Source: Escherichia coli
GTDB taxonomy: Bacteria; Pseudomonadota; Gammaproteobacteria; Enterobacterales; Enterobacteriaceae
Length of the DNA stretch: 64,000 bases
Reading direction: 5' to 3' (one strand)
NCBI RefSeq assembly: GCF_044324875.1
Contig: NZ_CP172185.1
The position numbers and the translations under genes are program-made. Numbering within the stretch: position 1 is the first letter of the stretch; the number at the start of each line of letters is the position of its first letter. The notes under the pieces are model-generated. The model was not told where the DNA came from, made no database searches, and was given only the letters and a program-made list of their open reading frames with translations. Below are positions 50,214 to 56,576 of this stretch, piece after piece.

Positions 50214-51128
50214 TTATTCATAGATAAAAGTGACACCAATGACTGACTGGACGGTTCCGGCTGCAACCTTGTTTCCTGTTTGTCCATAGGTTGCGCTTAA
50301 ACCCAGAGGTACTTTGCTTTTATTTACTGTCCCCAGGGAGACGTTTTCTCCCGTAGCCAGTATTTTTCCATTACGCATCAGAGAGACACCCACTCCCGAT
50401 GCTTTTGTTGCATCTGGTGCTGTGTTAGCAAACACTTGTCTGGCACTGTCAGTGGTAGCACCCGAAAGATAAAATGAGAGCTTTTGTTCACTTGAGCAAT
50501 ATACGCCAAGGGGTATTTCTGCGCTTCCAGGAAAGTCCGGGAGATTCACGTTGACATTACGACTATCAACGGTGCAGCCGCCTGTTGGCATAACAACACT
50601 GTTATTTGAAATAATATTCCACGTAAAATTACGCGGATTTCCACTTCCTAACGTGGCAATTTTATACATATGAATACGGGCAATAACTTCCCCGGCTTTT
50701 ATGACAACTCCACCGGCCGCACCGACTGGGGTAATATAGAGTTTTAACGGTAATGGCATCGGTGTCTTATCACCAATATCTAATACATTAGTATTTGTCG
50801 TCAACGGGAAGGGGTAGGTCACATTATTCCAGTACAGCGATCCTTTATATGACTGTAGAGAGCCTGCGAAAGCTGAGCCTTGTACCAGGTTTATATGATC
50901 AGTGTCGTACCAGCCGCCGTAATCATTCCAGCAACTTATATGCTGAGACAAGTCTACAACCAGATTCTGGCCCGGTTGTATTACAGGGTCGAGATTAACA
51001 TAAACAGAGGTTGTACCTGCTCCAATACTTGACCCGCCATCGACATTACAACTGAAGGCAAAAACTTTGCCTGCCATTAATAGAAGATAAATACCGAACA
51101 GAAGCTTCATACTTATTGTTTTACCCAT
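50214..51128 (-). CDS. ydeQ: Fimbrial tip adhesin, FimH-like
   Basis: 304 aa with signal peptide; two-domain adhesin organisation at the distal end of a chaperone-usher operon. Confidence 0.85.
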
Positions 51129-51186
51129 GATATATCCTAAGGTTAAAAAATTGATTTAAAAAGAGGCTAAGAAAATCGAATCGACG

Positions 51187-51690
51187 TTATTGCCAGGTGT
51201 AGATCACATTGATTAGCGCCTCGATCGTTCCCTGGCTTGCGTTTCCATTCACCGTGATAGCTCTTGCCTTAAGTGGAAACTGTGCATTACGAGTGATCTC
51301 ATCAACAATAACCGTTTTGCTATCGCCATTTTTTAACGTCGCATCCTGGTCATCCCTTAGCTCTATCTGAATATTTTCGGCAGTACCTTCATTTTTGTAA
51401 TAACCCGTATTGTCAGTTGAACCTGTCACGATTGCCGTCACTGCACTTGTTTCAACCGGACAATCGGTTAATGACAAAGTAATATTGTGCCAGCCTGATG
51501 CAGAACCAGGTTGTTGCAGATTGCGCGTATAAAGATCCCCGAGATTAACGTTAGCTTCTTTGGTTTGAATAGTGCAGGGTTTAGCGACTACCCGACCATT
51601 AACAGTGATAGTGACATCGGCGGCCTGGAGAGTTGCTGTGAATAACGCGCAAAACGTAGCTAACAGGAACCTCTTGTGAAGTCTTTTCAT
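51187..51690 (-). CDS. ydeR: Fimbrial minor subunit, FimG-like
   Basis: 167 aa; signal peptide; pilin domain ending ...NVIYTWQ. Confidence 0.85.
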   Translation of the reverse strand: MKRLHKRFLLATFCALFTATLQAADVTITVNGRVVAKPCTIQTKEANVNLGDLYTRNLQQPGSASGWHNITLSLTDCPVETSAVTAIVTGSTDNTGYYKNEGTAENIQIELRDDQDATLKNGDSKTVIVDEITRNAQFPLKARAITVNGNASQGTIEALINVIYTWQ

Positions 51691-51702
51691 ATCTGACTCT
51701 GA

Positions 51703-52233
51703 TTATTGAAATTCAAGGGTAAAGGTTGCCGAAGCCCTCACCAGTCCCGGATTGACGGACTTCTGAGTTGACTTCAGACGAGCGGAGTAAGGCAAAATAT
51801 TGTTCTGTTCTGGTACCAGTGGGATCCACTGCATCCCGGCATGAAGGTCATTCAATTTCACCGGACGCATATTTCCGTCCAGTATTTCTATACCCAAACC
51901 GGAGGCCGTATTGCTTCCTTCATCCAGTTTCAACAGAGTATTATTTTCTGCATCCTCAATCCCGTTAAATGCAACCCGAACCCCCGTTGTCCCTTTACTG
52001 CATTCACTTAACGTAATCTGAAAAGGGACGGCTGGACTTGTGCTACCGGTCGTTGGAAATTGTCTGGCACTGTATTTTTGGAGATCTACGGTAAAATTAA
52101 GCGAATCCGATGAGACTGTGCAGCCATAATCGAGGACGCGCCCGCTAATTTTAATAACGCTATCTGCGGATAAAGCAGAATAGGTGGTTAACCCCAGACA
52201 TAAACCGAGGAAAATAATGTTATTGTATTTCAT
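51703..52233 (-). CDS. ydeS: Fimbrial minor subunit, FimF-like
   Basis: 176 aa; signal peptide; pilin domain. Confidence 0.85.
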   Translation of the reverse strand: MKYNNIIFLGLCLGLTTYSALSADSVIKISGRVLDYGCTVSSDSLNFTVDLQKYSARQFPTTGSTSPAVPFQITLSECSKGTTGVRVAFNGIEDAENNTLLKLDEGSNTASGLGIEILDGNMRPVKLNDLHAGMQWIPLVPEQNNILPYSARLKSTQKSVNPGLVRASATFTLEFQ

Positions 52234-54898: not shown

Positions 54899-54939
54899 TA
54901 TTAATTCCGATTGAGTTTATTATTAATTAGGTCACTGGC

Positions 54940-55659
54940 TTACTGCATGGTTGCCTTAATACGCGGAGTTAATGCACCGTAATCATTGATCGTCTGAAAA
55001 CTGATATCCCCGGTTGCAGCATGCGGGATATCCACCGATACTTCACCTTTTGGCGGCACCATGGTGTTTGGGAGATTGCTATTTCCTGCTTTCAAATTTG
55101 TTACGGTAATGAAGTAGGGCGTTGGATTAATAAGAGTGAGTTTGCTGCCGCTGCGACGAAACCGAAGCATTGCAGGCGCTTCTTCAGGTGCCATTGCCAG
55201 GTTCGTGGGGCGATAAAACATTTTTATGCGGCTAATAATTGCCAGCTGTAATGTATTCTCATTCTTCTGATCTTTTTCCATAGCAGGAATAGCTTTAACA
55301 TTAACCCAGAACAGGCTTTCACGGTCGCCTGGTAACTGATGATTAGTGGCGTTGATTATCCGCAGCGTATTCTCTTTTTTACCTTGCATGGAAAAAAGCG
55401 GTGGCGTAATGACAAACTGGGTGTCTTTTTGGTCACCTGCATTTTCTATCCATGACTGAATGAGATAGACACTGGCAGGATCATTATTCGTGACAGGCAA
55501 TAAAACCTGTTTCTGGTTTGCCGGATAAATTACCCGCGTCGCACCCAGTGCGACAGCTGCGTTGGCAATGGTGCTATGGCAAGCAAAGAGCAATAAAAGT
55601 AACACTGTCGCCATAAAGGAAATAGAGTAGGGGGTACGCGTAGTTTGCATCTGATGCAT
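54940..55659 (-). CDS. Periplasmic fimbrial chaperone (FimC/PapD-like)
   Basis: 239 aa ORF; signal peptide MATVLLLLLFACHSTIANA suggests the real start is 15 codons downstream (55614); typical PapD-like domains. Confidence 0.85.
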   Translation of the reverse strand: MHQMQTTRTPYSISFMATVLLLLLFACHSTIANAAVALGATRVIYPANQKQVLLPVTNNDPASVYLIQSWIENAGDQKDTQFVITPPLFSMQGKKENTLRIINATNHQLPGDRESLFWVNVKAIPAMEKDQKNENTLQLAIISRIKMFYRPTNLAMAPEEAPAMLRFRRSGSKLTLINPTPYFITVTNLKAGNSNLPNTMVPPKGEVSVDIPHAATGDISFQTINDYGALTPRIKATMQ

Positions 55660-56012
55660 TCTCCATGTGTTAAGAGGATAAGCGGGAAAACCGTTACATC
55701 AGACAATCAGTAAATATTGCTAATACATTGGCGACTCGCCGGGTTTCCAGACTTAATGCGTTTGTAATAAATGTTGGTTCTCTTTTAATAGGAAAACCTT
55801 GCTACAAAGTAAATATTTTAAATAACAGTAAGTTTAACTACTGTTGTTTATTGATCGTTTAGATATTATGTGATTTTTTCATACCGCTCCAAAACACAAA
55901 CTATTCCTCATTAATAATGAGATGAACATTGGTGAATTGCTCGGGTGTGCGTAGCCATGCTACACACACCCTGTTTCAATTTCAGATGACGTATAGCCAC
56001 CTTAAGATTGAA

Positions 56013-56576
56013 TTATAGATATTGAACTTTGAAGGTCGCATCAGCGTTTGCAGTACCAGCTACTGACTGCCCGAGAGCAATATATCGAGCCTGGAACGGC
56101 AATATATTCGTGCCATCAATCAAGTCAGTTTTAGCACTAAAAGTGGCACCATCAAGTATTAATACCTCACCCGTACGGTCCAAAATTTGAATACCGACAT
56201 TTTGGGCAGAGCCTGCCGCTGAACTCTGAAGCGCTAATGTGTCGTCATTACTGGTGACAGTAGTACCCAGGAATGCAACAGCTGCATTACTGGAAACATT
56301 GGTATCACAATCATTCAGCTTGATATTGAAGCCAACGGCGGAGCTGAGGTCACCCGCTTTAGCCAGACGAGAAGAACGGACCTGACCCAGCTCAACCGTT
56401 TGGTTCATTGATTCTGAATCAATCGCACAAGCGGCATTTACCACTTCACCTTTAAAATGAATAACACCGCCATTAACAGTGGTCGTTACTGATTCATCAC
56501 CCTCGGCTGCGCTTACCGCAGCAGACGACATCGCCAACACAGAAACGACAATCATACCGACATGTTTGAGTTTCAT
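56013..56576 (-). CDS. Major fimbrial subunit (FimA-like, F9-type)
   Basis: ORF 56013-56624; start set at ATG 56576 ([23 protein letters not shown]) with GGAG ribosome-binding site; pilin ending KVQYL. Confidence 0.85.

Follow-up and report, generated by a model that had tools for sequence, protein, structure and literature searches.

An intact F9 chaperone-usher pilus operon in Escherichia coli at the locus that is degraded in K-12

The stretch of Escherichia coli DNA analysed here (64,000 nucleotides, referred to as the window) contains six co-oriented open reading frames (ORFs) on the minus strand between positions 50214 and 56576. Which pilus system do they encode, and is it complete? An earlier note had proposed a complete six-gene operon of the F9 type, at a site where K-12 carries a degraded locus. 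Our analysis makes it almost certain that these genes form the intact chromosomal F9 (Fml/Yde) operon of E. coli, which encodes a chaperone-usher pilus, and no argument against this reading was found in the sequence.

Six genes and their products

The six genes and the other features of the locus are compiled in Table 1. None of the six ORFs has an internal stop codon in the ORF listing, and the six gene lengths are the same as in the RefSeq annotation of a strain with 99.6% identity. Two start codons deserve comment. The length of the major pilin is counted from an ATG, while the mechanical ORF reaches a TTG at 56624, and the chaperone ORF stretches to 55659, which would give 239 aa.

Table 1. 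Features of the F9 locus in the window
Feature	Position	Strand	Description
ydeQ = FmlH (alias FmlD), two-domain tip adhesin	50214..51128	-	304 aa; Pfam FimH_man-bind
ydeR, FimG-like adaptor pilin	51187..51690	-	167 aa; Pfam Fimbrial
ydeS, FimF-like adaptor pilin	51703..52233	-	176 aa; Pfam Fimbrial
F9 outer-membrane usher	52247..54898	-	883 aa, full length; PapC_N + Usher + PapC_C
F9 periplasmic chaperone, PapD-like	54940..55650	-	236 aa (RefSeq start); PapD_N + PapD_C
13-bp perfect-stem hairpin	55943..55971	-	41 nt past the fmlA stop codon
fmlA, F9 major pilin	56013..56576	-	187 aa including signal peptide; Pfam Fimbrial, 108 bits
5' leader, 251 nt	56577..56827	-	start-site G (56827) to fmlA ATG (56576); 29.5% GC
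F9 promoter	56834..56863	-	-35 TAGTCG (56863-56858), 18-bp spacer, -10 CATAAT (56839-56834); read from the sequence
Segment absent from K-12 MG1655	53474..56754		gap between two blastn matches to the MG1655 locus

The domain architecture is that of a gamma-1 chaperone-usher system, with a two-domain chaperone of the PapD type (PapD_N, 136 bits; PapD_C, 49 bits) and an usher with N-terminal, barrel and C-terminal domains (PapC_N, 157 bits; Usher, 662 bits; PapC_C, 77 bits). The Pfam Fimbrial model exceeds its gathering score in three subunits, i.e. the products of fmlA, ydeS and ydeR, and the latter two additionally match the NCBIfam models FimF (238 bits) and FimG (257 bits), respectively. The Pfam matches of the six proteins are far above the gathering scores, with the exception of the Fimbrial (pilin-domain) match to residues 185-302 of the adhesin, which stays below the threshold (23.0 bits, cut-off 25.6). 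Hydrophobic N-terminal leaders were read by eye in all six proteins. With six unbroken reading frames and the expected Pfam domains, the proposal of a complete operon with a full-length 883-aa usher holds.

Assignment to F9 and comparison with type 1 fimbriae

For comparison, the proteins were aligned with those of the F9 operons of the uropathogenic strain CFT073 (c1931-c1936) and of the O157:H7 strain Sakai (ECs2107-2113). The lengths of all six are identical to both references, and the identities range from 97.7% to 100% (97.7-98.8% for CFT073, 98.4-100% for Sakai). The product of fmlA is 100% identical to ECs2113 and 98.4% identical to c1936, and the values are 98.3-98.7% for the chaperone, 97.9-98.5% for the usher, 98.3-99.4% for YdeS, and 98.8-99.4% for YdeR. 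CFT073 and O157:H7, including EDL933 (Z2200-Z2206), have the same six genes of these lengths in the same order at the same locus, and the order agrees with the published description of F9 (PMC3966885). The FmlH lectin domain, the mapped promoter and the length of the leader are also shared, and the proteins differ only allelically, by a few residues each. The alignment to the O157:H7 operon, which the earlier note had named as a check, returned an orthologous and intact operon, with no frameshift and no sign of another fimbrial type.

The genomic context is partly conserved as well. The gene ydeP (47602-49881) adjoins the operon at a distance of 332 bp from the adhesin gene, an arrangement common to CFT073 and Sakai. 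The 5' side is variable. It contains here a remnant of the AraC-type gene yneL, with CMD and ABM genes as well as genes for an aldo/keto-reductase and a flavodoxin-like oxidoreductase beyond it; hipBA, commonly located at a greater distance on the 5' side of F9, was not found up to the end of the window. The missing N-terminal part of yneL was sought by translating all three frames upstream of 57264, and yneL is a true remnant because each of them is riddled with stop codons.

The adhesin is further evidence for F9. Its residues 25-184 are identical at 160 of 160 positions to the FmlH lectin domain in the Protein Data Bank (6AOW), and the residues of the galactoside pocket that are known to contact the ligand (PMC5866590), i.e. 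F1, Y46, D53, K132, N140, and R142, are all present. The lengths, the protein identities and this domain bear out the F9 assignment of the earlier note.

A different reading would be that the region is the type 1 (fim) operon or a second copy of it, in which case the pili would bind mannose. The two systems have much in common, i.e. the gamma-1 chaperone-usher architecture, a two-domain adhesin with the FimH fold, and adaptors similar to FimF and FimG. Accordingly, three subunits score above the cut-offs of the NCBIfam equivalog models FimA, FimF and FimG, RefSeq records name the genes "fimA", "fimF" and "fimG", and the adhesin matches the Pfam model FimH_man-bind. However, full-length FimH chains align to the adhesin through residue 304 with a score per residue that is far below that of the FmlH entries, and the identity to a FimH sequence is about 49%. 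FmlH binds galactosides and not mannose (PMC5866590). The locus next to ydeP is not that of type 1 fimbriae and is orthologous to the F9 operons. Neither a fimB/fimE recombinase ORF nor an invertible switch (fimS) exists nearby, and fimI is missing between the pilin and chaperone genes; a tblastn search of the 362-bp gap with three pilins for a decayed fimI gave no match at E < 10, and the hits comprised 3-4 residues. The systems also differ in their control, by H-NS and temperature in the case of F9 and by DNA inversion in the case of type 1 fimbriae. Orthology and the identity of the adhesin refute the type 1 reading, which we regard as extremely improbable.

Promoter, hairpin and proposed mode of expression

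The F9 promoter of CFT073 has been mapped by 5'-RACE (PMC3966885). The hexamers and their spacing in the window are the same as in the mapped promoter, as is the published distance of 251 nt between the start-site G and the ATG of fmlA. The -35 hexamer TAGTCG is shared with CFT073; in Sakai and K-12 it reads TAGTCA. A consensus scan did not list this promoter, the -35 of which is weak; it found 14 promoter-like sites versus 19.3 expected from shuffled sequence and 7 terminator-like sites versus 6.7. A scan of the whole window with Rfam revealed no RNA family in or around the operon.

An AT-rich upstream region of about 430 bp had been noted before, and it is indeed found: the 433 bp at 56577-57009 have a GC content of 32.6%, compared to 44% for the operon and 47.5% for the whole window. 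In CFT073 the F9 promoter is repressed by H-NS, with expression at 20 °C (PMC3966885). The regulation in the present strain could differ in detail from that in CFT073, because the upstream region is 93.3% identical across 446 aligned columns and the 5' neighbour, the yneL remnant, is a different one.

Both promoter hexamers and the start site are included in a 300-bp piece that is flanked by an inverted repeat of 15 nt (56820-56834 and 57135-57149), so that the promoter could be imagined to lie on a fimS-like invertible segment, with phase-variable expression as the consequence. The geometry is indeed similar to that of fimS, with arms that are complementary at 14 of 15 positions and 300 nt apart. 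However, a search of 5426 complete E. coli genomes gave no instance of the junction that inversion would create, the distal arm lies within the yneL remnant and is absent from CFT073, whose promoter works, and no gene for a tyrosine recombinase is located nearby. The fimS-like switch was rejected on the basis of the missing junction and the missing arm, and we assign it hardly any probability. The narrower version, i.e. an unrecognised F9 phase switch that is confined to strains keeping the yneL remnant, is equally hard to credit; it would need a recombinase encoded elsewhere and flips too rare to appear in any finished assembly.

The AT-rich gap of 362 bp between fmlA and the chaperone gene contains the hairpin listed in Table 1. 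The predicted fold of the RNA from 55925-56020 has an energy of -35.5 kcal/mol (z = -5.3), and none of 200 shuffled sequences was equally stable. The hairpin is not a canonical intrinsic terminator, because no U-tract follows on its 3' side. It may set the ratio of pilin to assembly machinery.

Based on established chaperone-usher knowledge and on published F9 work, carried over by orthology, the following mode of operation can be proposed. A sigma-70 promoter 251 nt 5' of fmlA would drive one transcript spanning all six genes. At 37 °C, H-NS on the AT-rich promoter and leader would keep it nearly silent, with expression rising at about 20 °C, and the hairpin next to fmlA would probably stabilise or partly terminate the fmlA message, yielding more pilin than assembly machinery. 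All six products would be exported via their signal peptides. The PapD-like chaperone is expected to fold and cap each pilin by donor-strand complementation, and the usher to polymerise, by donor-strand exchange, first FmlH at the tip, then the adaptors YdeR and YdeS, and finally many copies of FmlA as the rod. The lectin domain of FmlH would target terminal galactosides, i.e. Gal(beta1-3)GalNAc (the TF antigen), GalNAc and Gal(beta1-3)GlcNAc, and plant xyloglucan is a further ligand of the O157 version. Glycan binding by F9 (PMC3966885) and the ligands of FmlH (PMC5866590) have been published.

Decay in K-12 and distribution in E. coli

The earlier note had stated that the K-12 ydeQRST locus lacks the chaperone and the major subunit and has a truncated usher, and this agrees with both the annotation of MG1655 and blastn. 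MG1655 is annotated with ydeQ, ydeR, ydeS and a ydeT pseudogene "missing N-terminus", and genes for a chaperone and a major subunit are absent. The blastn matches to 45910-53473 and 56755-57447 of the window directly abut in MG1655. K-12 thereby lacks the N-terminal 475 codons of the usher, the chaperone gene, fmlA and most of the leader, and ydeT' encodes only the C-terminal 408 aa of the usher (the 3' 1227 bp of the gene). The adhesin and both adaptor pilins are retained (97.4-99.4% identity to the proteins of the window). K-12 has lost 3.3 kb from the interior of the operon, i.e. by an internal deletion and not by loss of the entire 5' end, because the F9 promoter is also still present, along with some 70 nt of leader sequence. 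The assembly of F9 pili is impossible in K-12.

To put this into perspective, we determined the distribution of the region. At least 80% of it is present in 3567 of 5426 complete E. coli genomes (~66%), and the published value is an intact F9 operon in about 60% of strains, with disruption in K-12 and other strains of phylogroup A (PMC3966885). That the operon is a silent relic, translatable yet never expressed and on its way to a K-12-like decay, would be compatible with its disruption in about one third of the genomes, for which IS elements or deletions are often responsible, and with its silencing by H-NS under standard laboratory conditions. In contrast, the six intact frames with 97.7-100% identity to functional orthologues, the intact mapped promoter, the F9 pili of wild-type CFT073 at 20 °C (PMC3966885) and the contribution of FmlH to chronic urinary tract infection in the mouse (PMC5866590) argue against a relic, which we consider very unlikely.

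A second locus had been cited together with the operon as ancestral gene content that K-12 has lost, i.e. an intact and putatively OmpD-like porin gene. The ORF (8231-9331, 366 aa) is indeed intact and adjoins yddG, and K-12-type genomes have only a yddL fragment at this site. NCBIfam places the protein in the OmpC subfamily, and PDB and NCBIfam resolve it no finer than the general-porin family OmpC/OmpF/PhoE; a literature search for yddL and ompD together found nothing. Only a minority of genomes (1008 of 5426) have the porin gene intact, and therefore an ancestral status is only plausible for the porin, while it is well supported for F9. An apparent fusion of dosC and dosP was also noticed in the window (around 29700-29950), which could be an artefact of the assembly.

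The intact and degraded forms of F9 have been in print since 2014, and the operon, its distribution, its control by H-NS and temperature, its glycan ligands and the structure of its adhesin are all published. Finding it intact is ordinary, because the complete operon is well studied and occurs in about two thirds of the sequenced strains. Commensals also carry intact F9 (PMC3966885), and F9 is not pathogen-specific and no marker of pathogenicity. The automatic names "fimA", "fimF" and "fimG" are misleading for F9 genes, and the value of the present analysis lies in the correct annotation. Judged from its sequence, the strain should be capable of producing F9 pili.

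Identity of the fimbrial operon

The operon at 50214-56576 is, judged by its sequence, the F9 (Fml, Yde) fimbrial operon, which is already known in detail. Reading of the ORFs yielded six genes without internal stops, all on the minus strand, each encoding a product with an N-terminal leader sequence. The Pfam matches of the products are far above the gathering scores, apart from the C-terminal pilin domain of the adhesin (23.0 bits, under the gathering score of 25.6). The intergenic gaps along the operon are 362, 41, 13, 12, and 58 bp, and the 433-bp stretch ahead of fmlA (56577-57009) has a GC content of 32.6%, compared with 44% for the operon and 47.5% for the whole window. 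The earlier note had described six intact, co-oriented genes with their coordinates and an AT-rich upstream stretch, and the ORFs, Pfam matches, and GC values show that every one of these descriptive statements is correct.

Genes of the F9 operon, with window positions and Pfam domain assignments
Gene or product	Position	Strand	Length (aa)	Remarks
fmlA	56013-56576	-	187	fimbrial pilin; counted from ATG
chaperone	54940-55650	-	236	PapD_N, PapD_C; open frame three codons longer, to 55659
usher	52247-54898	-	883	PapC_N, Usher, PapC_C
ydeS	51703-52233	-	176	fimbrial pilin
ydeR	51187-51690	-	167	fimbrial pilin
ydeQ/FmlH	50214-51128	-	304	FimH-type lectin domain

The 3′-side neighbour of the operon is ydeP (47602-49881), and elsewhere the window runs collinear with the narZ-ydeP segment of the E. 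coli chromosome. The operons of CFT073 (c1931-c1936, reportedly the version studied in Ulett 2007 and Wurpel 2014) and O157:H7 Sakai (ECs2107-2113) also adjoin ydeP, and their six gene lengths are identical to those of the window. The six proteins have the same lengths as their CFT073 counterparts, with 97.7-98.8% identity; the alignment with the O157:H7 operon, which the earlier note had proposed as a check, likewise gave equal lengths and 98.4-100% identity. Residues 25-184 of the adhesin agree at 160 of 160 positions with the FmlH lectin domain known from crystal structures (PDB 6AOW and ten related entries), and all six ligand-contact residues, i.e. F1, Y46, D53, K132, N140, and R142 (PMC5866590), are retained. 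The CFT073 promoter has been mapped by 5′-RACE (-35 TAGTCG, 18-bp spacer, -10 CATAAT, start G 251 nt before the ATG; PMC3966885). The window promoter matches it exactly, with the -35 at 56863-56858, the -10 at 56839-56834, and the start G at 56827, the same 251 nt ahead of the ATG (56576). The F9-type assignment of the earlier note is thus borne out by locus, gene lengths, protein identity, lectin domain, and promoter.

At this locus the names "fimA", "fimF", and "fimG" are assigned automatically, as would be fitting for type 1 fimbriae. The NCBIfam "equivalog" models FimA, FimF, and FimG exceed their cut-offs on the F9 subunits (51187-52233, 56013-56576), and the RefSeq records of the F9 locus therefore carry misleading type 1 names. 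We reject a type 1 identity because the chromosomal locus differs, neither a fimI gene or remnant nor a recombinase was found, and the adhesin is FmlH and not FimH. An invertible F9 promoter, suggested by a 15-nt inverted repeat that brackets it, is also rejected, as the inverted junction occurs in none of 5426 complete E. coli genomes and one repeat arm lies inside the yneL remnant, missing from CFT073. That the F9 operon is a translatable but dead relic is unlikely, given intact frames, an intact promoter, and near-identical alleles with demonstrated function.

The K-12 locus and the distribution of F9

In the MG1655 annotation, ydeQ, ydeR, and ydeS are joined by a pseudogene, ydeT ("missing N-terminus"); next come an AraC-family pseudogene and hipAB. 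In a blastn comparison with this locus, window segments 45910-53473 and 56755-57447 abut in K-12, which therefore lacks 3281 bp. Missing are fmlA with ~180 nt of its leader, the chaperone gene, and the first 475 usher codons; K-12 still has the promoter and the initial ~70 nt of the leader. The earlier note's account of a degraded K-12 locus is correct.

Segment 56755-57447 is only 84.8% identical to K-12, versus ~97% in the flanking DNA; it corresponds to the 5′ side of f9, which is known to vary. Promoter-distally it holds the yneL AraC remnant (57010-57264, HTH domain only); CFT073 lacks this segment beyond 56989. Between the yneL remnant and a carboxymuconolactone-decarboxylase-family gene, two 13-nt arms form a perfect inverted repeat around a 9-nt spacer (57545-57579).

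Among 5426 complete E. coli genomes, 5396 match region 49900-57300 at least in part, and 3567 (66%) carry 80% or more of it in one place, in line with the published 60-61% of strains with intact F9 (PMC3966885). High coverage is not in itself proof of an intact operon; the best-matching genome, for example, has an ISEc31 element inside it.

Other loci in the window

The earlier note also named a porin, putatively OmpD-like and ancestral, as intact here and lost from K-12. The loss from K-12 is supported: an intact 366-aa general porin ORF (8231-9331, minus strand) adjoins yddG, whereas in K-12-type genomes only 36% of window 7000-9700 is matched and a yddL porin fragment is annotated. Of the 5426 complete E. 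coli genomes, 1008 have the full region. By family the protein is one of the OmpC/OmpF/PhoE general porins, and its NCBIfam match, to the OmpC subfamily, only just passes the cut-off (495 vs 484 bits). Between the porin and an IS element lie two adjacent leucine-rich-repeat ORFs on the minus strand (5485-6663 and 6802-8067; 392 and 421 aa), where strain 10035776-3 is annotated with one such gene and one pseudogene fragment.

Three IS elements are present. The ~1.3 kb insertion at 4060-5387 relative to strain 10035776-3, with IS3-family transposase ORFs (HTH_Tnp_1, rve), is flanked by narU and the leucine-rich-repeat genes. A 705-bp IS200-like element (15523-16227; Y1 transposase 15615-16124), missing from the same strain, is flanked by fdnI and the higA-like yddM gene and explains an Rfam STnc490 match at 15533-15656. 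The 1954-bp IS21-family element (60173-62126; istA-like 60259-61281, IstB 61278-62060) interrupts an aldo/keto reductase gene, of which strain 10035776-3 has an intact copy; the flanking matches overlap by 5 bp, which points to a target duplication. The Rfam SECIS_3 match at the selenoprotein gene fdnG (11285-11343, plus strand) is expected and ordinary.

In a 1015-aa in-frame ORF (27486-30533, minus strand), the globin and middle domains of DosC are fused to DosP (PAS-PAS-GGDEF-EAL), with the junction near 29821-29824. Compared with strain 10035776-3 and Sakai, it arose by a 755-bp deletion that takes out the GGDEF domain of DosC and the start of DosP. A 251-bp junction query had no one-piece match in the 5426 complete E. 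coli genomes; the fusion is either private to this strain or an artefact of the assembly.

Predicted expression and assembly of F9 fimbriae

Orthology and established knowledge of chaperone-usher systems predict a single transcript starting at 56827. By orthology, H-NS would act on the AT-rich promoter and leader, with repression at 37 °C and expression at ~20 °C (PMC3966885). A hairpin with a 13-bp perfect stem (55943-55971) lies 41 nt past the fmlA stop codon, and the 96-nt segment containing it folds at -35.5 kcal/mol (z = -5.3). No U-tract follows in the sequence, and the hairpin is therefore read as a putative stabiliser or partial terminator, which may set the excess of pilin over the machinery. 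As in related systems, the chaperone would fold and cap the pilins via donor-strand complementation, and the usher would assemble the FmlH tip, the YdeR and YdeS adaptors, and the FmlA rod, in this order, by donor-strand exchange. The published ligands of FmlH are terminal Gal, GalNAc, TF antigen, and Gal(beta1-3)GlcNAc (PMC5866590, PMC3966885), and plant xyloglucan is reported as a further ligand of the O157 version (PMC7766294). The FmlH encoded here would, by orthology, bind the first four of these ligands.
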